DNA from: a virus
Taxonomy: Duplodnaviria; Caudoviricetes
DNA: 62,494 nt
Reading direction: 5' to 3' (one strand)
IMG/VR virus record: IMGVR_UViG_3300046786_000191
Span: 1-62,494 of that record
A model generated the notes under the pieces. That model saw only the letters and a program-made list of their open reading frames with translations. It was not told the origin of the DNA and ran no database searches. Below are positions 7,881-32,900 of the stretch, in pieces; the first letter of the stretch is position 1; each line of letters begins with the position of its first letter. Made by a program: the position numbers and the translations under genes.

Positions 7881-7910
7881 ACTGTAGCAGAAAATATACA
7901 CCCCGTGCAA
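7881..7910 (-). promoter_or_regulatory. Candidate sigma70 promoter for the packaging/late operon
   Basis: Minus strand TTGCAC-18 nt-TACAGT with an extended TG, upstream of the 7846 start. Confidence 0.4.
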
Positions 7911-8313
7911 ATTTATTTTTGGGTCCCCTTACCGGGGGGTTGTCTAGGGGGAAGAAGTCCGGACTTATCCCCCCCAAAAAATATGCCCCCTCGCCCCACT
8001 TTTAAATTTTGCTAACCGGGTGTGCATCACACAGTGTATGGGCCTGGGACTCCTACCTTGTATGTTTTGGGGGGTGGGGTCTTGGTTTACCAAGGGTTTT
8101 TGTTTTTGCATGGGTCTCCCCGCGAATTTTTTTCGATACGCGAGGTCTAGACGGAGGAAGGGAAAATTTTTTTGACATAAGCCAGCATTGATTGAGGCTT
8201 TGATTTTCATCGCGGGCTTTGCTCAATCATGCGTTTGTGCGTGTGCGGTTTTCCCCCTTTTTCTGTGGTTTGTTTATAGTTCAACCATGGCAAGGCGATT
8301 AGCGCGTGTCATT

Positions 8314-8342
8314 GGAAATACCCTCTGGTCAAGGGTTTTTCC
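8314..8342. repeat. 29-bp 11-7-11 site, copy 1 (orientation A)
   Basis: GGAAATACCCT-CTGGTCA-AGGGTTTTTCC. Confidence 0.9.
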
Positions 8343-8378
8343 ACTTCATTCTGACCACTTCTTTATTGGAGTTTCGCT

Positions 8379-9056
8379 ATGACTAAAACAAGTCAAGCCG
8401 TTGCTACTGCGGTCAATTCAGTAGTTGCCTCTGCCTCTGCAGAGAATGTCCTCGTGTTGCATGGTAAGCCTGCAAGCGAATGGAACGAGACAATCATTCA
8501 GTTGGGTTTCGATTCCTGCAAGGCTCACACTGCGGGCGAGGAAGCGGCTCGCACCATGGCTCAATGCCAGACTTCGTTGTTCGACCTTGTGAAAGGCTTG
8601 AACTACTTGGAGTTTCAGTACATTCGCAGTCAATTCATCATTGGTGGTGTTGACTCGGGTAAGACTGCGGGCGCGTCTGAGCAAGTCTGGGACAAGCAAG
8701 TCAATGCGATTGTCAAATCCTTTGGCTTTGTTCGTCCTAAGTCTGAGTCGAAAGATGCGATTCGCAAGGCTGAGGCTGAGGCTAAGCGTAGGGCTGAGTT
8801 CGAAAAGCTCTCTGACGCTGAGTTGCAGGAAAAGGCGGAGGCTCTTACTCGTAAGGGCGACACCAAATCCTACAAGGAAGCGGCAAAGATCAGCGCTGAG
8901 TTGGACAAGCGCAACAAGCCTGTGATTGACGCTGAGCAAGTAGCACGCAAGGCGGTCGTTGACAAGATCATCACTCGGGTGCGGGATGTGGCAAAAGCCA
9001 AAACCGCTGATGGTGATGCCCTGCTGACGCAAGTTGCGTTGTTACTGGGCGAATAA
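8379..9056 (+). CDS. Hypothetical early protein
   Basis: 225 aa, GGAG RBS, coiled-coil C-terminal half, followed by a terminator. Confidence 0.8.
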   Translation: MTKTSQAVATAVNSVVASASAENVLVLHGKPASEWNETIIQLGFDSCKAHTAGEEAARTMAQCQTSLFDLVKGLNYLEFQYIRSQFIIGGVDSGKTAGASEQVWDKQVNAIVKSFGFVRPKSESKDAIRKAEAEAKRRAEFEKLSDAELQEKAEALTRKGDTKSYKEAAKISAELDKRNKPVIDAEQVARKAVVDKIITRVRDVAKAKTADGDALLTQVALLLGE

Positions 9057-9066
9057 GCCCGCTAAG

Positions 9067-9102
9067 CCCGTCATGCAATTCTGCATGGCGGGTTTCTTTC
9101 TT
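9067..9102 (+). terminator. Rho-independent terminator
   Basis: CCCGTCATGCA-ATTC-TGCATGGCGGG followed by TTTCTTTCTT. Confidence 0.7.
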
Positions 9103-9122
9103 AACCTTTATTGGAGTTCATT

Positions 9123-9356
9123 ATGGACAATGATGTCTTTGGTCAATTGTGCTTCTACACTTTTGTAGATGTTCCTAAAATCGAGTTTTACGAAGGTAAG
9201 AATTCGAATTACAGTACCCGCCCAAAGCGGGTCAAGCTGGCGACAATTTACTGTCGTCGTTCTGAGTCTGCTGAATACTTTTCGGAATTCAAGTCCGCGA
9301 ATCCTATGGTGTTCAAGCGTCTTTGTGCTGAGTTCAGTTTTACAGAGACGCTGTAA
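9123..9356 (+). CDS. Hypothetical protein (77 aa)
   Basis: TTGGAG RBS, ATG 9123, followed by a terminator. Confidence 0.65.
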   Translation: MDNDVFGQLCFYTFVDVPKIEFYEGKNSNYSTRPKRVKLATIYCRRSESAEYFSEFKSANPMVFKRLCAEFSFTETL

Positions 9357-9361
9357 AACCT

Positions 9362-9397
9362 CGCCCGCTGTGCTTCGGCATGGCGGGCGGTTTTTTT
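9362..9397 (+). terminator. Rho-independent terminator
   Basis: CGCCCGCTGTGC-TTCG-GCATGGCGGGCG followed by a T7 run. Confidence 0.85.
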
Positions 9398-9435
9398 GTG
9401 TCCAAAATTTTTTGGCTTTGAAGCCAGTTCCCACA

Positions 9436-9486
9436 ATGATCGGGCGAGTCGCGTGCATGATCGGGTTAGGCTTGGTCATGATCGGA
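9436..9486 (+). repeat. Three phased ATGATCGG repeats, 21-bp period (iteron-like)
   Basis: ATGATCGG at 9436, 9457 and 9478 inside a ~760-bp region without a convincing gene. Confidence 0.6.
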
Positions 9487-9599
9487 GTAGTCTCGCGGGC
9501 GTGGTTCTTTCGTATCGCGTGACGCTTAAGACGCGGCGCTTAACCCGCTCTGCCCGCGATGCCAGTTCCTAGTAGGAACGGAGTAGGCACGGCGGGCGG

Positions 9600-9628
9600 G
9601 GAAATACCCTGACATAAAGGGTTTTTCC
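9600..9628. repeat. 29-bp 11-7-11 site, copy 2 (orientation A)
   Basis: GGAAATACCCT-GACATAA-AGGGTTTTTCC. Confidence 0.9.
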
Positions 9629-10091
9629 GCGTTTTTTTTGACGCACGGTCGCCTCGCCCGCCCACTTAGTGCGGGCATAGCGGGCTACGCAACGATAAAC
9701 GCACAAAGCCAGCCAAATACGCATACATAGGTAGTACATACATAGCTAATATCGTAAGACTCTTGCAGAAGCCAGCACAAGGTTTTGTAAAATAACACGG
9801 CAGGCTTACATAACCACCCACTTTACCTTACACAATTTTTGCAAGCCTGCAAGCGCAGGTCGTTGATTTTATTGGGCTTCTTCTTTATATATATATCTTT
9901 AAAATAAATAATAAAAGACAGCTTCAGAAAATGATACACAGGGAGAGCGGGTCTAGGAATTACCCCTTCATCATCCTATTCTCAACTTTTTCTATGTTTG
10001 GCAACGCCACCGCTTCACCTCTTCCCCTGTACTCCAAAATGCCAAGCGGTTCATTATTTATTATCTTAACCCCCCACAACCCGCATGGTTA

Positions 10092-10120
10092 TTGACATCT
10101 ACACTTTTTTAATGTAAGAT
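10092..10120 (+). promoter_or_regulatory. sigma70 promoter
   Basis: TTGACA-17 nt-TAAGAT upstream of the 10163 gene. Confidence 0.7.
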
Positions 10121-10162
10121 AAACACCCTAGTTCTGTAATTTATATTCTAAAAGGAGTCACC

Positions 10163-10819
10163 ATGTCCCGCCCCATCAAGTACCGTAACGCTGACGACCT
10201 GATCGAGAACTGCACAATCAAAGAGGGTTGCATCATTTGGCCCGAGACCGATTCAAGTGCATCGCCCGTCATCAGTCCCGCAAGCCCACTTGCCAAAACC
10301 ATGCGCACCAACTCAGTTGCTCGTATGTTGTTCATCTTGTGCCGACACCTGCCCGCGAGTACGCGTCTTGTGAAAAGGTGCAACACCGAGTCGTGCGTCA
10401 ACCCATGGCATTACACCGAAGCCAACGCAGTAGTCCGCAAGCGGGCAACGCTTAGTGATAACGGGCTCGACCCAACAAGCCTGCTACCCAAGCAAGAATC
10501 GGTCAGGCATCTTGCGTTTCCAACTGACGAGGAAATCAACATGCTCAAACCCAAGAACCCTGAGATTCTTGGTGCGCTGATGATGTCTGCAAGCGTGGCG
10601 GGCTTTGACGCCAAGGGTCTGCCATACGGCAAGAAGCACAAGTTTGACGGTCCAATGGCATCGCCCGACAAGCCCGTACTGGTGATTCGCAAGCGTGAGG
10701 AAGCCAAGCCCGAGGTGCAACCCGAGGAAAAAGAGGAGAGCATTGACGACTTCTTCGATATGTTAGAGCGTGGATTCGCGGCAAGGAAGAATCCCCAAAA
10801 GGGCGGAATGAGTGCCTAA
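10163..10819 (+). CDS. HNH-like (His-Me finger) protein, probably catalytically degenerate
   Basis: GCIIWP...VKRCNTESCVNPWH resembles phage HNH C-W-x-W...H-x-C-xxx-CVNPxH but lacks the first His; AAGGAG RBS. Confidence 0.55.
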   Translation: MSRPIKYRNADDLIENCTIKEGCIIWPETDSSASPVISPASPLAKTMRTNSVARMLFILCRHLPASTRLVKRCNTESCVNPWHYTEANAVVRKRATLSDNGLDPTSLLPKQESVRHLAFPTDEEINMLKPKNPEILGALMMSASVAGFDAKGLPYGKKHKFDGPMASPDKPVLVIRKREEAKPEVQPEEKEESIDDFFDMLERGFAARKNPQKGGMSA

Positions 10820-10833
10820 AACACGGAATGCCC

Positions 10834-10863
10834 CTTGACAAAGTCAAGTTTCTGTGGTACAAT
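10834..10863 (+). promoter_or_regulatory. sigma70 promoter with a palindrome over the -35 box
   Basis: TTGACA(10835)-17 nt-TACAAT(10858); CTTGAC-AAA-GTCAAG palindrome at 10834-10848. Confidence 0.8.
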
Positions 10864-10917
10864 GTACGCAGTACATTAGTTAATCAGGGCTGTGTACTGC
10901 ACGCAATCTTGCGTTAG

Positions 10918-10946
10918 GGAATTACCCTTTACCCAAGGGTTTTTCC
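10918..10946. repeat. 29-bp 11-7-11 site, copy 3 (orientation A)
   Basis: GGAATTACCCT-TTACCCA-AGGGTTTTTCC. Confidence 0.9.
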
Positions 10947-10973
10947 TCAATCTCTTTTATTGGAGTCTGTTTT

Positions 10974-11069
10974 ATGCACAACCTTACGCCATGGCAACGC
11001 ACCGAGCGCGTTGTGTTGCTACTTGCAGTCATGGTACTGCTTCTCGATCTCTTTTACTGGAGACCATGA
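10974..11069 (+). CDS. Small hydrophobic peptide (31 aa), not in the ORF track
   Basis: TTGGAG RBS; MHNLTPWQRTERVVLLLAVMVLLLDLFYWRP; ATGA overlap with the next gene. Confidence 0.6.
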   Translation: MHNLTPWQRTERVVLLLAVMVLLLDLFYWRP

Positions 11070-11242
11070 TGCAGATGTTCAACCAAGGCTTTCGCAATCC
11101 TGTCCCCTTCAACCGCTTTGCTCTCAGTTGGCTTCAAGCCTTCGATGAGTGTGTGCGTGACGGGCGTGACTACACCGAGCTTCATTTCTATCGTCACCCC
11201 GAGACGGGCGAGATCATCATCACCTACTGGGAGATCAATTGA
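11066..11242 (+). CDS. Hypothetical protein (58 aa)
   Basis: CTGGAG RBS, coupled start; MMQMFNQGFRNP... Confidence 0.6.
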   Translation: MMQMFNQGFRNPVPFNRFALSWLQAFDECVRDGRDYTELHFYRHPETGEIIITYWEIN

Positions 11243-11499
11243 TGACTCACATTTCTAAAGAATACGATGACGATCATCACGCGTGGCACAGCTGTGTTCA
11301 CTGTGGTGATGATGTCCACCACGAGCGGTACGCCCTTGGCTATCGCCTGTGTATGCATTGTGGCAATCAAGCCGCGATCTCCGCACGCCAGTCATGGTGT
11401 GTGGTGCAACCCTACGGCAAAGGTCCTTATATGTTGGTGACCGAAGCAAGCGCACCCAAGACGCTTCTCGACACCAACCAAAAGTACCCGCGTTCGTAA
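11242..11499 (+). CDS. C4 zinc-finger protein (DksA/TraR finger-like)
   Basis: CVHCGDDVHHERYALGYRLCMHCG. Confidence 0.6.
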   Translation: MTHISKEYDDDHHAWHSCVHCGDDVHHERYALGYRLCMHCGNQAAISARQSWCVVQPYGKGPYMLVTEASAPKTLLDTNQKYPRS

Positions 11500-11500
11500 C

Positions 11501-11529
11501 GGAGAAACCCTGATGGTCAGGGTATTTCC
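11501..11529. repeat. 29-bp 11-7-11 site, copy 4 (orientation B)
   Basis: GGAGAAACCCT-GATGGTC-AGGGTATTTCC. Confidence 0.9.
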
Positions 11530-11560
11530 TTTTCTCTTTTCTTCTTATCAAGGAACTTAA

Positions 11561-12640
11561 ATGTCTAAAGAACTATCTTTCAATCGCACAGTCAACTTCA
11601 CAGAAACCGTTGACATCATTCTTAACTCTGGTGCGAACTCAGTACACCTTACTGGCGAACCAGGCGTTGGCAAGACTGCGATTCAGAATGTGCTTGTCGA
11701 GCGCACAGGCTACCGCAAGGTCTACATTGACGGACCGAACACCGATGTCGGTCAATCGGGTATGCCCATTCCCAATCATGCGACTCGCACCTTGGACTTC
11801 TATCCTGCTGACTACTATGGTCTGCACTTGAACGAACCGCAAGTCATCATGATTGACGAGTGGACTAAGACCGATGACTATGTGCGTAACACCCTGCACC
11901 CACTATTGCACGAGAGACGCCTCGGCACATTCGAACTGCACCCCGATACCATCGTGTTCACGACGGGCAACATGGACGGTGATGGTGTGGGTGACTATGC
12001 GAAGGCGCATACGCGCAATCGTCAGACATGGCTCACTTACATGAAGCCAACTGCGAGCGAGTGGCTCGTGTGGGCATCGAACAACGGAGTTGCCGCTGAG
12101 ATTCAGGCGTGGGTGAAAGAGTATCCCCATTCCCTCGCATCGTACATGGACGGTGGGCAGAAGGAGAACCCATACATCTTCAACCCAACTGACGCATCAC
12201 AGACTGCGTTCGTATCACCTCGTTCGTTGTTCAAGGCATCGCATTGGGTAACTATCCGTGATCGCATCACCGAGAATGCATTGATCGCTACGCTTGACGG
12301 TACGCTCGGTATCGCGGCATCGCGTGATCTGCAAGCATACATCTCGCTTGCCGATCAGTTGCCTACATCCGAGTCAATCGAGAAGTCACCCGATACTGCG
12401 CCAATACCTAGCAGTCCAGCGGCTCAATGTATCTTGGCATTCAAGGCGGTGTCTGTCTGCACACGCGAGACATTCGCTACATGGCTACGCTACCTCAAGC
12501 GTATGCCCAAAGAGACTCAAGCTGTGTTTGTCAACACCATTCTTGAGAACCGTGTGAAGAAGGACTGGGTGCTTGTGCATCCTGCGTTCGTTACATGGGC
12601 GCGTGAGAACCAGTACATGTTCTCAGGCTTAAAAGGATAA
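11561..12640 (+). CDS. MoxR/dynein-related AAA+ ATPase
   Basis: Walker A GEPGVGKT, Walker B IMIDE, TGN sensor, SPRS motif. Confidence 0.85.
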   Translation: MSKELSFNRTVNFTETVDIILNSGANSVHLTGEPGVGKTAIQNVLVERTGYRKVYIDGPNTDVGQSGMPIPNHATRTLDFYPADYYGLHLNEPQVIMIDEWTKTDDYVRNTLHPLLHERRLGTFELHPDTIVFTTGNMDGDGVGDYAKAHTRNRQTWLTYMKPTASEWLVWASNNGVAAEIQAWVKEYPHSLASYMDGGQKENPYIFNPTDASQTAFVSPRSLFKASHWVTIRDRITENALIATLDGTLGIAASRDLQAYISLADQLPTSESIEKSPDTAPIPSSPAAQCILAFKAVSVCTRETFATWLRYLKRMPKETQAVFVNTILENRVKKDWVLVHPAFVTWARENQYMFSGLKG

Positions 12641-12663
12641 ACCCTTTGGTCAAGGGTAATTCC
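12635..12663. repeat. 29-bp 11-7-11 site, copy 5 (orientation B)
   Basis: GGATAAACCCT-TTGGTCA-AGGGTAATTCC, overlapping the AAA stop codon. Confidence 0.9.
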
Positions 12664-12688
12664 ATTCATCAACTATCAGGAGAGAGTT

Positions 12689-12952
12689 ATGACTAAAACT
12701 GTAAAGATCGGTGCGCCTGTTTCTTATAAGAACTGCTACATCGTGCCTGTCAACGAGGGCTTTGATCTGGTCGACAAGACCACGGGTCGGTGGATTCATT
12801 TACCAAGTCAACGCTTGGCTAAGTGGAACGCAACTGTGTGGACACGCTTGTCTATGGAGTTCGATACATCCAACCCTTTGTCCAACACCAAGCTCACCAA
12901 GCTTGAGGTTACGGCAGTCGTTATTGATAAACAACCAAAGGAAAAGAAATGA
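12689..12952 (+). CDS. Hypothetical protein
   Basis: 87 aa, AGGAG RBS. Confidence 0.7.
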   Translation: MTKTVKIGAPVSYKNCYIVPVNEGFDLVDKTTGRWIHLPSQRLAKWNATVWTRLSMEFDTSNPLSNTKLTKLEVTAVVIDKQPKEKK

Positions 12953-13194
12953 GAAGTATATGGATTGCAATCGGTCGTAGCGATGACCCCGAAGATCGCT
13001 CAGTTCAACATCTGTATGTATTCGAATCATCGTTCGATGCACACGGGTTTGTTAACCGCATACCAAGGTACGACCACTTACCTGAAGAGGCTCGCAACAT
13101 CATGTGGTCGGTGACTGAGCATGCTATCAACGAGAGCAAAGTTCGGGCGTTGACCGACTACTGCTCGGTGTACGAGGAGCAGTGCGATGAGTGA
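12949..13194 (+). CDS. Hypothetical protein
   Basis: 81 aa, ATGA-coupled. Confidence 0.65.
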   Translation: MRSIWIAIGRSDDPEDRSVQHLYVFESSFDAHGFVNRIPRYDHLPEEARNIMWSVTEHAINESKVRALTDYCSVYEEQCDE

Positions 13195-13387
13195 CAACGA
13201 TCTGCTGACATTCATCCTGCTCGTATGGGCGGGCGTGGCTACGGGTCTGTGGCTTGACGCTAGGCGTGAAACCAAGCTGACCAAGAAGATCATCATCCAT
13301 CTCGTTCAGAACAAGGACGAGCGTGAGAAGTTCTTCTCGGGCGCTGACCTGATGATTCAATCAAGAGGTGACTTCGATGCACGATAA
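13187..13387 (+). CDS. Small membrane protein
   Basis: 66 aa with an N-terminal hydrophobic helix. Confidence 0.65.
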   Translation: MSDNDLLTFILLVWAGVATGLWLDARRETKLTKKIIIHLVQNKDEREKFFSGADLMIQSRGDFDAR

Positions 13388-13532
13388 GAAAACATTGAAC
13401 AACCTTTACCACGCGGGCATGGCGTTCGCGGCTCAACTACGACTGGTCGGTGAACATGAAGCCGCCCACGACATCGAAGTGTATGTGTTAGATATTAAGA
13501 AGGAGTTAGAAGATGCTAGTACTGAAGAATAG
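13377..13532 (+). CDS. Hypothetical protein (51 aa), not in the ORF track
   Basis: GAGGTG RBS; MHDKKTLNNLYHAGMAFAAQLRLVGEHE...; fills the gap in the operon. Confidence 0.5.
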   Translation: MHDKKTLNNLYHAGMAFAAQLRLVGEHEAAHDIEVYVLDIKKELEDASTEE

Positions 13533-14748
13533 ATTGACCGCTGAACAGCGGGTCGAGCTTGTCCATGTGAGTCTCATGCGCAACAAGGCGTTTGCTTTGT
13601 TCGCTGGTCTGTTCATGGTCGGCAAGACAACAGTTGAGGACAACAAGATGACTGCGGCTACCAACGGGCGAGACGCTCGGTATGGTCGTGAGTTCGTTGA
13701 CTCGTTGTCTGACAAAGAGTTGGCGTTTCTCATCATGCACGAGAACATGCACAAGTGCTATCGTCACTTGACTGTGTGGCGTTCTCTGTATGAGGAGGAT
13801 CATCGCCTTGCTAACCTCGCGTGTGACTATGTCATCAACATCCAGTTGGTTGATATGGATCCGAACGAGGACATCATCGCGTTCCCACGCGACAAGAAGA
13901 CTGGCAAGCCTATCGGTGTAGTCGATGCACGATTCCGTGGTATGGATAGCAAGCAGGTGTTCGACATCCTCAAGCAAGAAGGCGAAGATGGTGGCGAAGG
14001 TGGCGATGGGAATAACCCTGACGGTGAGGGTAATTCCGATGGCGGGCTTGACTCACATGATTGGGAGAACGCTATCAACGGCATGAGTGAGACCGAGAAG
14101 AAAGACCTCGAGCGTGAGATTCAACAAGCCTTGCGTCAAGGTGGCATCTATGCGGGCAAGGTTGGCGCGAACATGCCACGCGAGATTGGTGAACTGCTCA
14201 AGCCCAAGGTTGACTGGCGTTCAGTCTTGCGTAAGTTCGTTCGCACATCTCTCAAGGACAGAGACTCTGTGTCATGGCGTAAGGCTCATAAGAACTTCTT
14301 ATGGCAGGATGTAATTCTTCCCAGTATTCTAGGGAAACGGATGAAGCATCTCGTCATCGCTATGGATACATCTGGCTCTATTCAGGGTGAGTTGTTGACG
14401 GCGTTCTTATCTGAGATGAATCAGATCGTCAAAGATGTGGGGGCTGATCGCATCGACATTCTGTATTGGGATACCGAAGTGGCGGGTCACGAAACCTACA
14501 AGGGTACAGACACAGCCATTGTGCATCGCACGAATCCCAAGGGTGGCGGTGGCACAAACCCCGATGTAGTCGTGGCGTACATGAACGAACATAAGCTCAG
14601 CCCTGATGCTCTCGTGATGCTGACGGATGGGTACATGCACACCAACAAGCCTGCATGGGCTTCTCTTACCAAGCCCACATTGTGGTGCATCTTGGGCAAC
14701 GATGGGTACGAAGTACCTTGTGGTCAAAAACTTGTTATCAAGGAGTAA
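13513..14748 (+). CDS. Metallopeptidase-like plus vWA domain protein (DUF2201-type architecture)
   Basis: TAATNG, HENMH (HExxH), acidic G-rich linker, MIDAS motif DTSGS...GGGT...TDG. Confidence 0.85.
   Translation: MLVLKNRLTAEQRVELVHVSLMRNKAFALFAGLFMVGKTTVEDNKMTAATNGRDARYGREFVDSLSDKELAFLIMHENMHKCYRHLTVWRSLYEEDHRLANLACDYVINIQLVDMDPNEDIIAFPRDKKTGKPIGVVDARFRGMDSKQVFDILKQEGEDGGEGGDGNNPDGEGNSDGGLDSHDWENAINGMSETEKKDLEREIQQALRQGGIYAGKVGANMPREIGELLKPKVDWRSVLRKFVRTSLKDRDSVSWRKAHKNFLWQDVILPSILGKRMKHLVIAMDTSGSIQGELLTAFLSEMNQIVKDVGADRIDILYWDTEVAGHETYKGTDTAIVHRTNPKGGGGTNPDVVVAYMNEHKLSPDALVMLTDGYMHTNKPAWASLTKPTLWCILGNDGYEVPCGQKLVIKE
14009..14037. repeat. 29-bp 11-7-11 site, copy 6 (orientation B), inside a CDS
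   Basis: GGAATAACCCT-GACGGTG-AGGGTAATTCC encodes the GNNPDGEGNS linker. Confidence 0.9.
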
Positions 14749-14750
14749 TC

Positions 14751-14996
14751 ATGTCTGAAGAATTTATCTTGTGTATCGGGGACTCGAAGTTCCTGCTCAG
14801 CTTGGACGAGGCGATGCAGATTGCCACGGCACTTAACTCTGCTCAGTACATTGGTACTGAGTGGCTCAACGGTGTAACCAACGGGCGTAACCATGTAGTG
14901 AAACGCCCGAACTATCAGTCAGCAGTGGTCAGCCCAATGACTGCGATCTTTCGCATGGAGCTGGACGCCAACCAAAAACTATTGGAGCAGAAATGA
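14751..14996 (+). CDS. Hypothetical protein (81 aa)
   Basis: AAGGAG RBS, ATG 14751. Confidence 0.7.
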   Translation: MSEEFILCIGDSKFLLSLDEAMQIATALNSAQYIGTEWLNGVTNGRNHVVKRPNYQSAVVSPMTAIFRMELDANQKLLEQK

Positions 14997-15163
14997 ATAA
15001 AGCAGCGGGTTATTCCGTAATCCTTAACAAAGAAACCTTTGATCTTCTTCGTGATGTCAAGGTTGATCTTACAAAGCGATTGGGCTTTGAACCAACCAAC
15101 GGTCAGGCGATTCGTCATCTGATCGCTGTGTTCTACGGGGAGGCGGAAATATCCTCTAAGTGA
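14993..15163 (+). CDS. Small putative ribbon-helix-helix DNA-binding protein (56 aa), not in the ORF track
   Basis: MNKAAGYSVILNKETFDLLRDVKVDLTKRLGFEPTNGQAIRHLIAVFYGEAEISSK; strand-helix-helix pattern; GGAG RBS, ATGA overlap. Confidence 0.5.
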   Translation: MNKAAGYSVILNKETFDLLRDVKVDLTKRLGFEPTNGQAIRHLIAVFYGEAEISSK

Positions 15164-15173
15164 GGGTAATTCC
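15145..15173. repeat. 29-bp 11-7-11 site, copy 7 (orientation B)
   Basis: GGAAATATCCT-CTAAGTG-AGGGTAATTCC. Confidence 0.85.
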
Positions 15174-15181
15174 GTGGGCTT

Positions 15182-15361
15182 ATGCCATTAGTCATATTAG
15201 CTAAAGGTAAGGTCGTGCATCAGCGCGAGCCATTCCCAACTATTGGTTGTCGTGCAAACGAGAACCGTATTACTCAGCAGAACAAGAATCTGCTGGCATC
15301 CCACATGCTCTCCAAGAGTATGTCCATTATTCAACAGTCTTTATTGAAGGAAACAAAATGA
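15182..15361 (+). CDS. Possible hypothetical protein (59 aa)
   Basis: Open frame MPLVILAKGKVVHQRE... ending in an ATGA overlap with 15358; weak RBS. Confidence 0.35.
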   Translation: MPLVILAKGKVVHQREPFPTIGCRANENRITQQNKNLLASHMLSKSMSIIQQSLLKETK

Positions 15362-16398
15362 GTTACAACACAGTAGGCGTAGCGCCGATCAACAGCTACA
15401 TGGAAGCGGTGCAGAGATACGAGAACACAAAGCCCATCCGTGGCAAGACCGTTCGCCCCTTGGGTGCGAGGCGTTACCACAGTCGCTCTGACATCACAAT
15501 GCCAGAGAATATTGTGCGCCTTAACTATTACGGTCAGGCGTTCGTAGAGTGGTATCCCGATGACACATTCATCGTGTATGTACCCAAGTGGCATTCAGCG
15601 TTCATGATTGGAGACTTGTCTGCGTATCTACCGCTCAACATGTATGTCGAGTGGGATAGCGGGCGGTATGTTCTAAGCATTCGTGCCGACAATCAGTCGC
15701 GCAAGTACTTCCTTGACCAACCACTTCAATTCCATCGCGTACCTAACGAAGATAGGTATAGCGCACAGTTCGATCTTGTGGAGAAGCCCAGTGCTTACCA
15801 CACAAGACTGCGCCCTAACGCGTACAAGAAATACATGGCTGAGTTCGAACCATTCTTTGCATGGTGCGATCTCGTCAAAGACTTTGAGAACAAAGACAAC
15901 AACATTGTCATGGAGGGCAAGGAAGCACAAGCGTCCCTGCGTAAGGCTTGCGGGATTCCTGTTAGCGAAGAATGGTGGCAGAAGGTGTACACCGAAATCT
16001 ATAAGCTGGACCCGAATGATCCAGTCAGAACTCAGATGCAAGCGGATTACAACATGCACGACTGCATGCCACGAGGCGGGCGTTGGAAGCGCAACATCTT
16101 TCACACGGCTAGTGCTACGACGATTCTCAACTGGTTGAAAGATACCACGGGTGAGCATTGGGTCAAGGCTAGAACCATCATCATCACGCAAGCTGGGACT
16201 TACAACTTCAGCATGGGCGGAATGATTATTAGCACCGAGGACGCTAAGGAATTCCTGCGTGAACTCGTGCTTCATGTGCATCGTGACGAATGTTTCATTC
16301 GTACCAAAACCAAGGACGGAGAAGTGCCTACAAAGCGCAACTACGAATACTTCAACTCGTTTGCTTTTTCAATGGAGAAACCCTTGGCTCAAGGGTAA
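15358..16398 (+). CDS. Hypothetical early protein
   Basis: GAAGGA RBS before ATG 15358; YENTKPIRG..RPLGARR N-terminal motif. Confidence 0.75.
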   Translation: MSYNTVGVAPINSYMEAVQRYENTKPIRGKTVRPLGARRYHSRSDITMPENIVRLNYYGQAFVEWYPDDTFIVYVPKWHSAFMIGDLSAYLPLNMYVEWDSGRYVLSIRADNQSRKYFLDQPLQFHRVPNEDRYSAQFDLVEKPSAYHTRLRPNAYKKYMAEFEPFFAWCDLVKDFENKDNNIVMEGKEAQASLRKACGIPVSEEWWQKVYTEIYKLDPNDPVRTQMQADYNMHDCMPRGGRWKRNIFHTASATTILNWLKDTTGEHWVKARTIIITQAGTYNFSMGGMIISTEDAKEFLRELVLHVHRDECFIRTKTKDGEVPTKRNYEYFNSFAFSMEKPLAQG

Positions 16399-16402
16399 TT
16401 CC
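16374..16402. repeat. 29-bp 11-7-11 site, copy 8 (orientation B)
   Basis: GGAGAAACCCT-TGGCTCA-AGGGTAATTCC, overlapping the stop of the 15358 gene. Confidence 0.9.
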
Positions 16403-16425
16403 AACATCATCAAGGAGAACATACT

Positions 16426-17298
16426 ATGCTAGACAATACAACACCAATCATGTCGCTGTCATCAATGGCGATGCTCGTCGAACTGCGCATCAGCACATGG
16501 ACTGCACGCAAGCGTGACAAGGAAACCACATCTGATCTGAACACTTCCAAGAACGCAGACCAAGATGCTTCCTCTGTTTACAAGTACCTCATGGCGGGCA
16601 GTAATCATCTCGAGAAGATAGAGAAGTACGCGGCTAAGTGCCGTGCGTGGAACAACCAACAGACCTTGCCTTGGATGAAGGGCGTGGGCTTGTTGCCCAT
16701 GGAGAACTTCTTCAAGTATCGCGAGCAACTAGGAACGATGGAGGCTAACTTCAACACGCTAGTCAATGAGTTCGTAGTAGCTTATCCGTCGTTGGTTAGT
16801 GCGCAGGCGTTCAAGCTCGGGGATTACTTCGATGCCTCTGAGTTCCCCGATGCTGACACATTACCTCGTCGGTTTAAGTTCGCGTACAACTTCCTGCCCG
16901 TGCCTGAGAGCGGTGACTTCCGCATCAACTGCGAGGCTCGAGTCAAAGCTGATCTGCAAGAACAGTACGACAAGATGTACAACGAGAAGCTGGTCGATGC
17001 TATGCGTGACCCATGGGACAGACTGCACAAGATGCTGATAAAGATCAGCGAGACCTTGACAGATGCGCCCGATGGTAAGCGCAGTATCTTCCGCGATTCG
17101 TTGGTGACTAACGCAGTAACCCTGTGTGAGCTACTGACTGTATTGAATGTGACCAAAGACCCCGAGCTTGAGAAAGCTAGGCGTCTGCTCGAGCAAGCTA
17201 TCACAAGCATTGATGCAGATGATCTGCGCAAGATGCCTGAAGCACGGCTCGAGTTGAAGACATCCGTTGACGACATCCTTAACAAATTTAACTTCTGA
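16426..17298 (+). CDS. DUF3150-like protein
   Basis: LVELRISTWTARKRD...TLPW...F..AY....FPD....RRFKF pattern, recalled from AAA/vWA-associated proteins; strong RBS. Confidence 0.55.
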   Translation: MLDNTTPIMSLSSMAMLVELRISTWTARKRDKETTSDLNTSKNADQDASSVYKYLMAGSNHLEKIEKYAAKCRAWNNQQTLPWMKGVGLLPMENFFKYREQLGTMEANFNTLVNEFVVAYPSLVSAQAFKLGDYFDASEFPDADTLPRRFKFAYNFLPVPESGDFRINCEARVKADLQEQYDKMYNEKLVDAMRDPWDRLHKMLIKISETLTDAPDGKRSIFRDSLVTNAVTLCELLTVLNVTKDPELEKARRLLEQAITSIDADDLRKMPEARLELKTSVDDILNKFNF

Positions 17299-17303
17299 AC
17301 AAC

Positions 17304-18170
17304 ATGACACAACTTACTAATATCAGAATCCCAAGCGACTGCGTTTTAGACCCGCTGCTCGAACCGTTAGCCAATAAGCTAGCATTGGATAGACCTAAGT
17401 GGGTATTCAAAGCTAAGTCTACGAACAAGCACAACCGCTGGCGTCATACATCAGCGGTGCATGAGGGTCCGAGCTTGCAACCAAACACTTTCTATATCAG
17501 AGAGTTGGATGTGTTCGAGAGCGACGAAGAGCTAGGCACTATCGGTGTGGACTGGGCGTATCGCCGTAGCCAAGCGCAACGCTACCATTGGTATTTAGAA
17601 TCGTGGCGTATCGTGCGTGAGCGTGGCTCAGCCAACACCAAGACGAGCATGAAGATGGACATCATCGTGCGTGAAGCCAAGAAGCAGTTCAAACCCAAGG
17701 GCTTGACCGAGCTTATGGAGACCGCCAAGCCCAAGATAAATGGTGCTTGGTATCACGCTGTACGCGATCTGATCTACCCGTTCGAGAGGATGCAGGGCAT
17801 CAAGTCAGGGACGGACTTGCAGTTGTATGCGTTCTGCTTAGCCAACAACCGTGATGTTGACATGAGTAAGTTCGATCACTTACTCAAGCAATTGCGGTCG
17901 CCTGAGTACGAGACGATCATTGCCAACTACGAGTTAGGTAGGCACTTGGAGGAGCAGGTAACCAATAACAATGTACTGGATGTGATAGTACATGATGGTA
18001 TGTTTGTTATGGCAGAACCTAACACCGACATTCCTAGACGCATGGCGTATGAGGAGATGCCCATACCTTGGCAAGAGCGTATCGCTGTGCTACAGTTAGT
18101 CAGCGATGGTGAGCTAGTTCGTGACACGGGCTTCCGAGTCAACGAGAATTGGTACCGTATCATCAAATGA
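17304..18170 (+). CDS. Hypothetical early protein
   Basis: 288 aa, last gene before the terminator. Confidence 0.75.
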   Translation: MTQLTNIRIPSDCVLDPLLEPLANKLALDRPKWVFKAKSTNKHNRWRHTSAVHEGPSLQPNTFYIRELDVFESDEELGTIGVDWAYRRSQAQRYHWYLESWRIVRERGSANTKTSMKMDIIVREAKKQFKPKGLTELMETAKPKINGAWYHAVRDLIYPFERMQGIKSGTDLQLYAFCLANNRDVDMSKFDHLLKQLRSPEYETIIANYELGRHLEEQVTNNNVLDVIVHDGMFVMAEPNTDIPRRMAYEEMPIPWQERIAVLQLVSDGELVRDTGFRVNENWYRIIK

Positions 18171-18191
18171 TTGTTTGTTGAGACTTGCCTT

Positions 18192-18216
18192 GACCCGCTT
18201 CGGCGGGTCTTTTTTT
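18192..18216 (+). terminator. Rho-independent terminator ending the early region
   Basis: GACCCGC-TTCG-GCGGGTC followed by a T7 run. Confidence 0.9.
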
Positions 18217-18221
18217 GCCTT

Positions 18222-18250
18222 GGAAAAACCCTTGCTCAAAGGGTAATTCC
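18222..18250. repeat. 29-bp 11-7-11 site, copy 9 (orientation B)
   Basis: GGAAAAACCCT-TGCTCAA-AGGGTAATTCC. Confidence 0.9.
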
Positions 18251-18279
18251 GAGTAGGTATTTCCCCTAATAAAAAAGGA

Positions 18280-18309
18280 CTTGACATAGTCCAGTATTGC
18301 CACTACATT
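18280..18309 (+). promoter_or_regulatory. sigma70 promoter of the replication operon with shared palindrome
   Basis: TTGACA(18281)-17 nt-TACATT(18304); CTTGAC-ATA-GTCCAG. Confidence 0.75.
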
Positions 18310-18330
18310 ATCTACTCATTAGGAGTAAAT

Positions 18331-23011: not shown

Positions 23012-23256
23012 AAGCACTCAACCCATGGGAAGAACTTGCACAGGTCGACCGACCAAGCATCTTTATGAAGGACCCCTACTTCCGTGCACGCAACCCAAGC
23101 AACCAAATTAAAAATGAAGAAGACTTAGGTTACAAGCAATTCGGCGTGTTCACCCGCGCCAAAGAGAGACAACCCAACAAGCATGAAGGAGTACTTGTAC
23201 ATGCCGAGGCCAAAGCCCCCCGCCCCCCTAAAGGCACGATACGTACGTTTAAGTGA
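23008..23256 (+). CDS. Hypothetical protein
   Basis: 82 aa, coupled. Confidence 0.55.
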   Translation: MKALNPWEELAQVDRPSIFMKDPYFRARNPSNQIKNEEDLGYKQFGVFTRAKERQPNKHEGVLVHAEAKAPRPPKGTIRTFK

Positions 23257-23419
23257 CAAGCAGTTTATTATTTTCAACCATCTTGGCGGTGCTGAATGGT
23301 TGAGAGAGTTACTAGAAAAGAAAGACCCATTTCCTAAAAAATACTATGATGCAATTTTGAAAACAGGAGGCCCAAATGCCATACGTGAACAAACCCCGCC
23401 CATACAAGAAAGAATATGA
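23201..23419 (+). CDS. Small putative DNA-binding protein (ribbon-helix-helix-like)
   Basis: AAGGAG RBS; MPRPKPP...YVRLSDKQ...LGGAEWLRELL. Confidence 0.5.
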   Translation: MPRPKPPAPLKARYVRLSDKQFIIFNHLGGAEWLRELLEKKDPFPKKYYDAILKTGGPNAIREQTPPIQERI

Positions 23420-25685: not shown

Positions 25686-26579
25686 ATGAGCAACATTACA
25701 ACATTCCGCGCTGACCTTCCCGCCCACCTGCAAAACGTAGAGCTGGACGACTTCACCAAATCCTTCACCTCCTCTGGCGGTAGCGTCAAGCGCATCACAC
25801 TGCGCGGGCGTGTCTTCCGTCTCGTGGATGGTGGCAAGGAGATCGCCAAGAACACTGACCCACACATGGATGTGGTGATTGTCAATGGCTCCAAAACTGT
25901 ACAGAAATCTTACTATGGACAAGAATACAACCCTGACGAGACCTCAGTGCCAGACTGCTGGTCAAGCAACGGCGAGCGACCCGACGCTGACGTTGAAAAC
26001 CCACAAGGACACAACTGCAAAGAGTGCCCTAAAGCTATTAAAGGTTCTGGCGGTTCTGGTCGTGCAGCTTGCCGCTTTTCTATGCGCTTGGCTGTGGTCC
26101 TTCGTAACAACCCCGCCGGTGACATTTATCAACTGATCCTGCCTCAGAAGTCTATCTTCGGTCAGGGCAACGTTGAGAGCATGCCCTTCCTGCAGTACGC
26201 CAAGTACGTCGGTCAATCAGGCTACAACCTGAACATGTTGACTACACGTCTGACCTTTGACACTGACAGTGACTTCCCCAAGCTGGTGTTCACAAACGCT
26301 GAGTTCTTGGATAAGGAAACATACGCAACTTGCGTAGAGCAGGGCCAGTCACAGATCGCCATCAATGCAGGCAGGCTCAACTTTACGAAAAAGGCTGAGC
26401 CCCAACTGCCCAAGTTGGTTGCCCCTGCTGGTTCTGCCGCCGCCGCTTTAGCCGCGCCTGCTAAAGAAGAAGCGGTCTCTGAGCCAACCGTGCGTGCTGA
26501 GAAGAAGAAAGAATCTACCCCGCCCAAGCCCAAGCAAAATCTTGCCGCCATGGTGGATGAGTGGGGAGACGACGAGTGA
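25686..26579 (+). CDS. Putative single-stranded DNA-binding protein
   Basis: Four-Cys motif (PDCWS..CKECP..ACR), A/P-rich linker, acidic-aromatic tail VDEWGDDE. Confidence 0.6.
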   Translation: MSNITTFRADLPAHLQNVELDDFTKSFTSSGGSVKRITLRGRVFRLVDGGKEIAKNTDPHMDVVIVNGSKTVQKSYYGQEYNPDETSVPDCWSSNGERPDADVENPQGHNCKECPKAIKGSGGSGRAACRFSMRLAVVLRNNPAGDIYQLILPQKSIFGQGNVESMPFLQYAKYVGQSGYNLNMLTTRLTFDTDSDFPKLVFTNAEFLDKETYATCVEQGQSQIAINAGRLNFTKKAEPQLPKLVAPAGSAAAALAAPAKEEAVSEPTVRAEKKKESTPPKPKQNLAAMVDEWGDDE

Positions 26580-26797
26580 TCGGTTACACGTACCGCATTC
26601 GTAAACTCAACCGTAGCGCCGATAAGAAGAACATTGGCGTTCGGTTGGGCAGGCACTGCATTGACGAGAACATCTCTGTCACTGAGCTTGTAGAACTGCT
26701 GGGTGTAAGCAAGCAGACCATCTACAACTGGTTCATGGGAGTGCATACCCCGGGACCAAAACAATCTTCAAAGATTCGAGAGCTCTTCGCTCTATAA
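26576..26797 (+). CDS. Cro/C1-type HTH protein
   Basis: ISVTELVELLGVSKQTIYNWFMG. Confidence 0.75.
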   Translation: MIGYTYRIRKLNRSADKKNIGVRLGRHCIDENISVTELVELLGVSKQTIYNWFMGVHTPGPKQSSKIRELFAL

Positions 26798-29915: not shown

Positions 29916-29978
29916 GCAACTAGCAGTTGCTTCTCTCCTTGATATATTAGCCCCGCCTAAACAGCGGGGCTCTTTTTT
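29916..29978 (+). ncRNA. Candidate small RNA with an anti-RBS core
   Basis: 5' hairpin GCAACT-AGC-AGTTGC at the predicted +1, unpaired TTCTCTCCTTGATATATT, terminator hairpin. Confidence 0.55.
29949..29978 (+). terminator. Terminator at the convergence of both genome arms
   Basis: AGCCCCGC-CTAAACA-GCGGGGCT followed by CTTTTTT. Confidence 0.85.
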
Positions 29979-32900
29979 CAGTGGAACTGATCGAAGTAGT
30001 TGGCCTTCTTCTCAGCGGGCTTGGACTCTTTCTTCAGTTTGTCCACATAGTCTTGCGTCACGATATGGCGTAGCTTGTCGTCAATGTACAGACCTTGGTC
30101 AGTTTTTGCAGACTTCTGCATCTTCTTCTCAATTGAGCTCACGAGACCATCAACGTCAATTGCATCAGTTGGGTGGCGCTCATTGAAGTCTACGATTTGC
30201 TTCAGAGCTTTATCTACACCATCAGCATCACCAGTCATGAAGTACAGACCAAACAGGTTCAATGCTTCAGTGCGTTTCTTAGTAATGCCTTCAGCCTGAC
30301 CCTTCTTCGTGATGTTGAAGTACTGACGCTCGGCAAGTTCTGATGTACGGAAACCAAGTGACTGCATGGCCAACTCAAATGGGCTGAACTCGTCCACAAT
30401 CTTGTCGCCCGCTAAGTTCGTCGCGCCCTCTTTGCTGTAGCGGAAGGCTACCAGCGGCTGACGAACAAACGCTGGCATGATGGCTTCAAGTGCACGATCA
30501 CCATGGCCGGTCTTAAACAGGTTATATGCCCGTGCACCCTGTTGCGCCATTCCAACAAATGGACCAAGAACTTTAGTAATGGCGTCATTAAGAGCAGTCT
30601 CAGCATCTACGTTCTGACGCATGTCTGGAATCCACATGCCATCAAGTTTGAGCTTGCTGGCAAAGTCGTAGCCCAGTGCGTTAAACGCGCCACGGCCAAG
30701 CAGCATGCCTGCTTCTTTACCTAGCGTGTTGACTGCCCAGTTCATGAACTCAAGCTCAAAGTCCAAGCGATCTTCATCATCCGGGGCCATACCAAAATTA
30801 AATACAGCCTCAATGATGGCCGCTACGGTTGAGAAACCCCAGAGACCAGTTACCCCCGACATGATCCCCGCCATGCCCATGGTTCCAATAAAACGCGCAC
30901 GCGCTTCGCGTCGGTCGGCTTCGGTCAAACCTTTGAACGAGTTGTACGCGTTGCGTGCCAAGAAAAACGTCATCTGCTGCGGGAACTGCTTGAACTGCAA
31001 AACCACGCGAGCAACTGGGTGCTGCATGTAGCGGGGCTTATTTGGTGCAGAGTAATCAAACATAGACCGGTTGGTCACGTCCTTGGCTTCTGCAATAGCT
31101 TCAGCAAACGCTTGCTGTTGGTTTGCGTAGCCAGCACGTTTCTCCATAGCTGCGCGGAACGCAGACATGGCCGTCACCTCACGGTTCAAACGCTCAGCAT
31201 GGTGGAACAAGAACGAGATCACCTGCATCGACTTATTGGGGATGCCAGAGTAATCTTCTGTTGGCTTAGAAGCCAGACCAGATTGGTCGTATGCAGCGGT
31301 AATGTCAATCAAGCCGTCAGCTACGAAACGTTTGTACGCAGCCATCTCTGCACCCGTAAGATTTTTAGAGCGCTCCAGAGACGGAGTCAACAAGCGGAAA
31401 TCACGAATACGACCGCCGGTCTCAACACCAAAACCCGTAAGGCCAATGTCTGCAACCGTTTTAGATATTTGTGCCATAACGTTGGCAACTGCACGGGTGT
31501 AACCCATCTTAGGGTTTGCCCTAACTTGCTGGCCCACCAGTGTAGGCACGCCAATCATGATGCCGCCCAAGACGTTGGTTACGGCAGATGCCACAGACGT
31601 CAGGTAATAGATGAAGCCAATGTTAGAGAAGTAGCTAACCCATGCGCCATCATCAGGTGGGTTCAGCATCGCATTCAGACGAAGCTCAGTCTCTTTAATA
31701 AAGTCACGCAGTTCGTCATTCTCAGCAGCCAGCACTGGATCGTAGTTTGCGCCAGCAGGTGTACGGCGTTTAACTTGTGACCGGGCTGCATCCATCTGAG
31801 AGAACATCTCGGGTGAATACTCAAAGCGAGCCAGCTGATACGCCATATTGAATGACGTACTAGCAAAGTTACGCAAGGCGTCTTGTGAGAAACCTTCCAC
31901 GCTGTTACGGTGGATGAACTGATTGCGCATACTGCGGTCAGGTTGGTTCTGCAAGAACGTTTGGTAGAAGCTGTCTTTCAACTCATGCTTACGATCGTTG
32001 GCTTCTTTAGTCGATAACCCCGCAAAGTCAGCGTTGTCCACGGCAGCAAACACTTCTTTCAAGAAGGCTGACTGCTGTGCGTGCAAGTCCATCTGCTTGG
32101 CGTAGTCGTTACCAATGTTGTCGCCAATAGTTTGAGACAAGTATGGGTCACGTTTTAAACGCTCTTCCACGTGAGCATCCCGTGCACCTTGAGACTCAAA
32201 CATGTAGTACTCACGGCTCGCGCCTCGACCAATCTGATACCAGAAGCGGCCATGACGCATCAGCGGGAAGTACGGGCCTTTGAGTGCGCCCTTCTCAAAC
32301 TCGTTACGAATCTCAAGGATCGTCGCTTCAGACACGCCAAGCTGACGCATCTGAATGATGCGGCGGTTCATCAAGCGCTTGTAGTTAGCGTAACGACGTT
32401 GGAAGAAGTTACGCACTTCACGGTAAATAGCTTTGGCCTCTGGGTCTAGAGCGTTCCAATCCAGCATCAACTGCACGTTGGCGTTGCGCTGGGCTGTATT
32501 AGCTTTATCAGGGTCCACCTCTGCAATAGTCGCTGAGTGCATAACCGCACCCAACTGGCGAGACATGTCAGGGTCTTTGGATTGCAGTAGTTCCCAACGG
32601 CGGGAAATCTTGGCAGACTCCTCAAGGATGTTGCTCTTGCGGGCAAGGAAGTCCTCGGTCACTTTAATGAAGTTGCTAATCTGCGGGATGCGACCAGCAA
32701 CCAAGTCATCAATCTGGCGCAGTGTCAACACACCCAAGAAGGCGGGACGCAGCGCGGAGTCAATGTTTCTAAACTCACGTTTAACTTGATTCCAATTGCG
32801 CACCTGCATCCAGCGACGCAAGGTTGACGGCTGGTTCGGCATACCCTTGGGCATGATCTTGGGTTTTCTTTTCCCAGTAGCCATGGCCTTGGGGCCAGTG

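Follow-up and report, generated by a model that had tools for sequence, protein, structure and literature searches.

An operator-like array of lineage-specific 29-bp sites in the early block of an uncultured freshwater podophage and its relatives

The stretch of DNA analysed here (the window) is a complete IMG/VR virus record of 62,494 bases, IMGVR_UViG_3300046786_000191, whose early genes are interspersed with nine copies of a 29-base-pair (bp), two-fold symmetric site. We found that every relative examined carries such sites at corresponding places, in letters that differ between lineages, and that the protein of the first gene in the block (8379-9056) is the one early protein whose sequence follows the class of the sites. 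Judged from sequence, the array is real, conserved and operator-like, it is specific to each lineage, and it has a plausible cognate protein that belongs to a new family. In our preferred reading, to which we assign a probability of roughly 0.45, the array is the operator set of a dimeric regulator, encoded by the phage, that would throttle the early block or switch it off. An earlier reading of the letters alone (the sequence-only reading) had proposed a dedicated protein-DNA system acting on the early segment, and this core proposal is borne out by the retained positions, the concerted change in site sequence, the missing hairpin signature and the class tracking of the 8379-9056 protein.

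Nine sites mark the early block

Searching the whole window for the pattern GGANWWAYCCT-N7-AGGGTWWTTCC with at most three mismatches gave nine matches, starting at 8314, 9600, 10918, 11501, 12635, 14009, 15145, 16374 and 18222 and separated by 1286, 1318, 583, 1134, 1374, 1136, 1229 and 1848 bp. No tenth copy was found elsewhere in the window at this threshold, and 100 dinucleotide-preserving shuffles were likewise free of matches. The search reproduced the positions and gaps of the sequence-only reading as well as its report that other full copies were absent, and the equally good copies throughout the genome that it had named as speaking against its proposal did not turn up in the window. 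Its limits for the array, just before the first early gene and just after the early terminator, match the ATG at 8379 and the hairpin at 18192-18209. The "single arms" that it listed, by contrast, proved to be near-matches only, with one mismatch at 9956 and two at 18254. Arm-like 11-mers with at most two mismatches numbered 73 after exclusion of the 18 true arms, barely above the chance expectation of 59 ± 8, and the match at 18254 sits in a promoter-upstream stretch (GTTTCCCC..TATAAAA) that is also present in relatives of other site classes. The gap values had also been described as near-regular; the values hold, but the spacing mirrors gene sizes, and relatives that are missing one site have gaps of 2.6 kb.

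The sites, the gene that follows the first of them and the hairpin that closes the block are placed as follows (nt, nucleotides; ORF, open reading frame).

8314..8342, site 1: 36 nt 5' of the ATG of gene 8379-9056
8379..9056, plus strand, gene of the candidate cognate protein: first gene after site 1; 225 amino acids, all-alpha, predicted homodimer, no known family
9600..9628, site 2: within a ~1.1-kb stretch without conserved ORFs and with two terminator-like hairpins
10918..10946, site 3: ~55 nt 3' of a TTGACA-17-TACAAT promoter match (10835-10863) and 27 nt 5' of a 31-codon ORF
11501..11529, site 4: 31 nt 5' of the gene of a MoxR-type AAA ATPase
12635..12663, site 5: covers the stop codon of the ATPase gene, with the next ATG 25 nt on
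14009..14037, site 6: within the DUF2201 (VWA-like) gene 13513-14748, coding for part of a Gly/Asp/Asn-rich linker
15145..15173, site 7: covers the final codons and stop codon of the 56-residue ORF 14993-15163
16374..16402, site 8: covers the end of the upstream gene, with the DUF3150 gene 23 nt on
18192..18209, plus strand, terminator-like hairpin with T-run that closes the block: 13 nt 5' of site 9
18222..18250, site 9: between that hairpin and a promoter match at 18281-18309

Eight of the nine sites lie between genes, and a start codon follows 8-36 nt past the site end at six of them, three of which overlap the stop codon of the preceding gene. No site coincides with a promoter match, in agreement with the sequence-only remark that most copies lie off promoters. 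Ordinary sigma-70-type promoter matches and terminators do occur within the block: the promoter-then-site order seen at site 3 is repeated in two relatives (L024 and L027), and the TTGACA-17-TACATT match at 18281-18309 begins ~30 nt 3' of site 9.

Two neighbourhoods of sites have features of their own. The ~1.1-kb stretch around site 2 (9060-10160) holds no ORF conserved in relatives and contains terminator-like hairpins at 9064-9095 and 9361-9390 and several GCCCGC/GCGGGC hairpins; small RNAs or an origin could lie here. Just past site 9, positions 18251-18316 and the same place in 27 relatives share a conserved A/T stretch of the CCCCTATAAAA type. TTGACA comes next, separated by 17 nt from a TAnAnT -10 box, beyond which lie the resolvase and polymerase genes; from its sequence, the arrangement resembles a strong promoter of the host type that includes an UP-like element.

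Relatives keep the array but change its letters

A search with the VWA-like protein retrieved 32 viral contigs (59-75% identity), and an ATPase profile added 18 further viral contigs and three contigs from metagenome-assembled genomes (MAGs). All of these relatives have syntenic 29-bp sites whose sequence is specific to the clade, with 3-11 sites per locus among the 32 loci fetched with the VWA-like protein, the low counts coming from loci that end short of part of the block. The window's own motif occurs in none of those 32 contigs, and its site class was found again in L103 and L104. The sequence-only reading would have taken relatives without the motif as evidence against it; the relatives do lack the window's letters, but they keep the array, its geometry and its positions.

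Across the clade, each half-site has an outer and an inner block with three free A/T-rich bases between them, and the two half-sites mirror each other around a free centre. Outer blocks read GAAC, GGAA, GGAC or GAAG, and inner blocks NCGACA, CCAACA, TCGAAT or, in the window's lineage, ACCCT, which gives the classes GAAC..CCGACA, GAAC..CCAACA, GAAC..TCGAAT, GGA(A/C)..TCGACA, GAAG..CCGACA and GGAA..ACCCT (window, L103 and L104). In the window, GGA(A) fills positions 1-4 of the half-site and ACCCT positions 7-11, whereas most relatives have NCGACA at positions 8-13; their arms reach position 13 around a 3-bp centre (13-3-13), and the window's letters read as 11-7-11.

Positions are held more firmly than letters. 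The site inside the VWA gene was present in 33 of 33 genomes, at +492 to +616 from the gene start, with variation both in its letters and in the residues that it encodes. The order terminator, site, promoter was found in 28 of the 33, the other five having been removed by a filter. All sites of the window, and likewise all those of each of four complete relatives, fall within one segment of 9.3-10.4 kb; these four relatives carry 5, 8, 9 and 9 sites at up to three mismatches, and a reversed control pattern gave no matches. Phages L007 and L008, with core early proteins that are 92-97% identical, differ nonetheless by one base pair per half-site in all of their sites, and this class switch speaks for a phage factor that evolves together with the sites and against a factor of the host.

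The free A/T triplets at arm positions 5-7 show a trend of their own at all loci, with the plus strand T-rich in upstream sites and A-rich in downstream ones and a switch near the ATPase gene in every lineage. As a sign of site polarity this asymmetry was rejected: it follows the local AT skew and was read as composition.

The sites are probable targets on double-stranded DNA

For a test of pairing, 172 distinct sites (of 232) were pooled. Watson-Crick pairs at arm positions 5-7 were observed 69, 48 and 93 times against 76, 72 and 92 expected, the position beside the inner block (8/22) was non-Watson-Crick in 50 of the 172 sites, and G·T and A·C mismatches were about equally common on the transcribed strand. 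Conserved letters fill the would-be stems and free letters the would-be loops; protein-bound RNA hairpins usually show the reverse pattern of constraint. The lack of excess pairing and the parity of G·T and A·C mismatches argue that the sites are double-stranded DNA targets of a symmetric protein rather than RNA hairpins, and their letters fit the pattern expected if a dimer contacts duplex DNA in two grooves of each half-site. We consider it likely that the sites are a phage-specified target of double-stranded DNA binding.

The opposing view is that the sites act as RNA hairpins in early transcripts, serving as processing sites, as stabilisers or as translational-repressor operators just 5' of ribosome-binding sites. 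It could draw on the orientation of the sites, all of which face the way the block is transcribed, on the six that end shortly before a start codon and on the ability of the inner arms to pair as a 5-7-bp stem. The pairing counts and the conserved stems with free loops tell against it, as do the positions of site 9, past a terminator, and of site 6, in a coding linker, leaving it improbable.

The protein of the first early gene tracks site class

Ten conserved early proteins from up to 47 genomes were compared by their pairwise identities in same-class and different-class genome pairs, regressed on ATPase identity. The 8379-9056 protein showed a residual same-class minus different-class identity of +17.6 points, a value reached in none of 2000 label shuffles (maximum 7.4); the residuals of the nine other early families ran from -1.3 to +2.5. 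Whatever the band of ATPase identity, same-class pairs of the 8379-9056 protein were 14-30 points more alike. Where the ATPases of a pair were less than 88% identical, its identity was 59.8% within classes (n = 79) versus 41.1% between them (n = 246), and no other family differed there by more than 3.3 points. The homologue in L104, a phage of the window's site class, is 65% identical to the window's protein, compared with 27-44% for those of other classes, although the L104 ATPase (86%) is no closer to the window's than are the ATPases of class A phages. The sequence-only reading had listed the 8379 gene among several candidates, and it emerged as the only one of the ten whose protein tracks site class.

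Structure prediction gave an all-helical model with long helices (predicted local distance difference test score, pLDDT, of 83) and a symmetric homodimer. The homodimer scored 0.79 against 0.00 for the best of three controls. Of proteins solved as pairs of one chain, 20 of 30 attained this mark, compared with one of 23 solved as single chains; these counts apply only approximately, since a custom alignment was used. At least 84% of contacts agreed between runs, and the pLDDT of the partner was 81 or higher. Residues 119-135 of the protein are a basic stretch. At least 275 metagenomic clusters hold relatives of the protein, none of them a relative of known function. A lead from the Atlas search that pointed to phiC31 repressor c (score only 0.78) was rejected at an hhalign probability of 0.13%. 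We put the chance that the 8379-9056 protein is the reader of the sites slightly above even.

Other proteins considered as readers did not follow the classes. The HTH_3 protein at 26561-26797, the only Pfam-recognised DNA-binding protein, has the same recognition helix, SKQT[IV]YNWF, in classes A, B, C and D and in the window; this is the sequence-only candidate at 26576, which was rejected on that account. The candidate at 14993-15163 falls for want of class tracking, with L007 and L008 sharing its strand residues but differing in their sites. Conserved in all relatives, this 56-residue protein has its stop codon within site 7, and its strand-helix-helix pattern looks by eye like a ribbon-helix-helix, a call for which profile searches of Pfam and PDB gave no support. 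The third suggestion, at 23201 (gene 23183-23419), has no Pfam match and is present in only four of 32 loci, one of them partial.

Class tracking was likewise absent for the 218-residue protein 10163-10819, whose model (pLDDT 78) had no Foldseek match. Four conserved Cys and a C-x4-C-V-N-P-x-H motif (CxNxxCVNPxH-like) give this protein a resemblance to HNH_3/His-Me zinc sites, and it has weak HNH matches among PHROGs; by our reading of the alignment, it has no conserved His two residues ahead of the first of these Cys. The hypervariable proteins 15358-16398 and 17304-18170 do not track class either, and searches found no family and no PDB sequence match for the two and no usable Atlas match for 17304-18170.

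An operator array as the preferred reading

Under the preferred reading, all nine sites would be bound by one phage-encoded, two-fold symmetric protein, most likely a homodimer of 8379-9056. This protein would be produced once the block is transcribed, and the dimer would then fill the leader site, the gene-junction sites, the site in the VWA gene and the site past the terminator. Standing in the path of the host RNA polymerase, bound dimers would limit or stop transcription across the ~10-kb block, and the change of both site and protein between close relatives would leave each lineage blind to the regulators of the others. Site 3 lies downstream of a strong promoter match, sites 4, 5, 7 and 8 lie at operon junctions and site 9 follows the terminator, a placement that would fit a protein obstructing the host RNA polymerase. 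Repression or a roadblock as the actual effect is suggested by analogy and is the more tentative part of the proposal; we infer the binding of DNA by the 8379-9056 protein, the direction of the effect and the roadblock mechanism alike.

Several points weigh against this reading. One roadblock would suffice for an operon, which leaves nine sites, one of them always within a gene, unexplained, and no promoter match was found upstream of site 1, so that autoregulation is a guess. Searches of Pfam, PHROGs and PDB by sequence matched the 8379-9056 protein to no DNA-binding fold or family, and Foldseek found no match to its model at E ≤ 0.001 in PDB or BFVD. The class-tracking result comes from genome pairs that are not independent, and the final test of this protein covered 28 of 50 genomes, with four class B genomes that have a homologue among those left out owing to an insertion. 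Counts of class changes did not discriminate between trees, with 6 for the 8379 protein, 7 for the ATPase, 8 for two other proteins and 5 for the VWA protein (5 classes). The first identity matrix placed two class A proteins, those of L025 and L029, nearer to class B (47-61%) than to other class A proteins (40-48%). Moreover, the part of the protein that tracks class best (residues 36-118) is largely the interface of the predicted dimer, and the class signal may reflect choice of partner rather than contacts with bases.

Other explanations of the array

The strongest competing account holds that the sites are junctions for the exchange of cassettes between related phages, with any regulation secondary, the exchange proceeding by ordinary recombination at a short conserved site-plus-ribosome-site sequence, as has been suggested for the promoter/stem-loop cassettes of T4-type phages, or through an unrecognised site-specific enzyme. 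Comparison of L024 with L027, which are ~99% identical elsewhere, speaks for it: two replaced ORFs start 14 and 26 nt past a site, after a shared ribosome site and ATG. Inserts that begin at a site were also seen, of 450 bp in L024 and 262 bp in L023. In 14 close pairs, unalignable stretches had 41 left boundaries, 12 of them between -62 and +86 nt from a site end. The other 29 boundaries lie away from sites, both figures being raw counts; the idea that breakpoints in relatives would coincide with the sites holds for some junctions and not for the majority. Where breaks do fall near sites, they follow the start codon and not the site centre, and the free centre is only 3 bp in most relatives. 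A scan of 63 window proteins, a subset of the window's ORFs, turned up no recombinase or integrase family, and site-to-site joints, the trace of the deletions or inversions between sites that had been envisaged, were absent from the contigs of four runs, although contigs can hide rare forms. Exchange also leaves the site in the VWA gene, the site past the terminator and the concerted change of all sites in a genome unexplained. We regard this account as unlikely, and the breakpoints near sites may be either a by-product of a short conserved sequence or the purpose of the system. A bolder form of the idea, in which the 8379-family dimer and the sites make up an integron-like cassette system of virulent phages, was suggested by the site-led inserts, the swaps that start right after a site and the class-specific protein. 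Co-infecting kin that share a class would gain, lose and trade units of site plus ORF at the sites, and site classes would be mating or exclusion groups that set which phages exchange or silence early genes; we hold this to be a long shot.

Two further accounts were considered. If the sites were promoters or elements for an unrecognised phage RNA polymerase or sigma factor, with a specificity that drifts as in T7-like phages, their position ahead of genes and their concerted change between lineages would follow, and the 29-bp span does equal that of a -35/-10 pair. The strict two-fold symmetry of both read-out blocks is unlike a promoter, however, the proteins scanned include no detected RNA polymerase or sigma family, the block already has its sigma-70-type promoter matches and terminators, and the site past the terminator lies at a variable distance upstream of such a promoter (~30 nt in the window versus 46 nt in L024), so that we see little chance of this. 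Still less probable is the binding of a host protein, as decoy or for recruitment, or a role in the entry, replication or packaging of the segment that enters first. The restriction of the array to one 10-kb block adjoining the terminase genes would suit such roles, and the phage protein that would bind the sites is a candidate only. Yet site class switches between phages with core early proteins 92-97% identical and follows one phage protein, the physical genome ends are not given by the record, and a spacing of ~1.2 kb is sparse for a ratchet. Among the mechanisms that the sequence-only reading had floated, then, silencing is the one that we prefer and infer, cassette exchange retains some support from breakpoints as a rival, and the host-regulator decoy loses ground to the class switches between near-identical phages.

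Comparison with known site arrays

Two papers on the Cluster A mycobacteriophages L5, Bxb1 and Trixie (PMC6550527; PMC9283540) describe stoperators, many copies of one short site that lie between genes and mostly off promoters. The stoperator-bound repressor blocks elongation, and the site consensus of each lineage varies with its repressor; the sites are 13 bp long, asymmetric and oriented with transcription, occur 20-30 times across the genomes of temperate phages and are bound by a monomeric repressor (PMC6550527; PMC9283540). The present array is similar in having many copies between genes (eight of nine) and none at promoter matches, and in a site class that correlates with the 8379-9056 protein, a correlation only. 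It differs in the length and two-fold symmetry of its 29-bp sites and in their confinement, 5-11 at a time, to one 10-kb block. Unlike the monomeric two-domain repressors of the L5 gp71 type, the candidate reader is a predicted homodimer of no known family, without a match in Pfam, PHROGs or PDB, and no integrase was found among the scanned subset of the window's ORFs.

Phage phiC31 (L102, NC_001978, 41.5 kb) offers a second parallel. We found 15 copies of the 16-bp palindrome CTACTCACGTGAGTAG, two of them with one changed letter, spread over its genome and lying mostly between annotated genes according to the feature table, with one inside gene c; the phiC31 repressor c reportedly binds these palindromes. 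A palindromic site that recurs at gene junctions is common to both phages, but the phiC31 sites are shorter, perfect palindromes distributed over the whole genome of a temperate phage, and repressor c is unrelated to the 8379-9056 protein.

T4-type phages have promoter/stem-loop cassettes in which a short conserved intergenic element stands 5' of small variable ORFs and forms the left junction of swapped cassettes. Here, too, the element precedes variable ORFs and marks the left junction of swaps; unlike the T4-type element, it has no promoter match in or at the sites, differs by lineage and also occurs within a gene and past a terminator. The inverted arms of the window, reading as 11-7-11, had drawn a comparison with the core sites of tyrosine recombinases, such as dif (11-6-11) and loxP (13-8-13). 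This likeness does not extend to most relatives, which read 13-3-13, and no recombination product was seen in the contigs of four runs; the accompanying statement that no recombinase is encoded agrees with the scan of 63 proteins. Among plasmid and partition systems, KorB with its OB sites (plasmid RK2) and ParB with parS are dimeric proteins on scattered palindromic sites, some far from promoters, that silence transcription. The present sites are longer than these and bipartite, and no ParB-like domain was matched by Pfam in the early or middle proteins scanned.

The array thus resembles stoperators and inverted-repeat systems in the way it would work, and belongs to neither. To call it an undescribed system, as the sequence-only reading did, was too strong, since operator and stoperator arrays of the same logic are known in temperate actinophages, where arrays of regulator sites that silence a block also set immunity groups. 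The same logic would here extend to uncultured freshwater podophages, with a new type of site (29 bp, with a bipartite half-site) and a candidate reader that has no known fold. In its site classes the clade provides at least seven natural variants of specificity with matched sites, which would make it useful for following the coordinated change of a DNA-binding specificity and some ten dispersed targets and for building orthogonal repressor/operator pairs. If the classes were to govern interference or exchange among co-infecting kin, they would amount to kin discrimination in lytic phages.

The phage and further observations

DNA of the window was detected in freshwater metagenomes, with no RNA run listed among them, and no near-identical DNA was found among GenBank phages. 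The nearest named phages share only the terminase (~53-55%) or the polymerase (34%) with it, and no comparable repeat family was found in the cultured distant relatives DSL-LC04, 023Pt_psg01 and KPP25 (terminase or polymerase at 34-55% identity). The proteins scanned include no integrase, recombinase or partition gene product, and the clade is one of abundant uncultured freshwater podophages without sign of lysogeny among those proteins. Three relatives (L103, L104 and L105) place this phage type in MAG bins named Anaerolinea, Polaromonas and Nanopelagicales, three unrelated taxa whose conflict makes the bins poor evidence of a host.

Genes for terminase, portal, ejection and tail proteins and for a 2331-residue polyvalent virion protein lie on the minus strand, and the plus strand from 8379 to ~29900 carries the early block and, after it, genes for replication (Hjc-like resolvase, family A polymerase, helicase and primase). 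The early block encodes the following proteins of recognised families.

11561-12640: MoxR-type AAA ATPase
13513-14748: DUF2201 metallopeptidase-like/VWA protein
16426-17298: DUF3150 protein

The VWA protein distantly resembles N4 gp25-type proteins of N4-like phages (26-31% identity). The large virion protein (29978-36973, minus strand, 2331 amino acids) has an LPD39 domain and a C-terminal part that resembles PHROGs named "DarB-like antirestriction", and its first ~1400 residues gave no match.

The "direct terminal repeat" of the record (1-97 and 62398-62494) is a 97-bp exact overlap within coding sequence that most likely arose in the assembly of a circular or permuted map rather than as a physical repeat, so that the record does not give the physical ends of the genome. 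In a strain from run X4 (90-95% similar), the 259 bp at 12928-13186, which hold one small ORF, are replaced by 15 letters, and the boundaries of this change lie away from the sites. The divergent intergenic stretch at 7900-8260 contains long runs of C, G, A and T, and a 36-bp piece of it (7905-7940) recurs in other contigs of three runs, where its flanks are unrelated.

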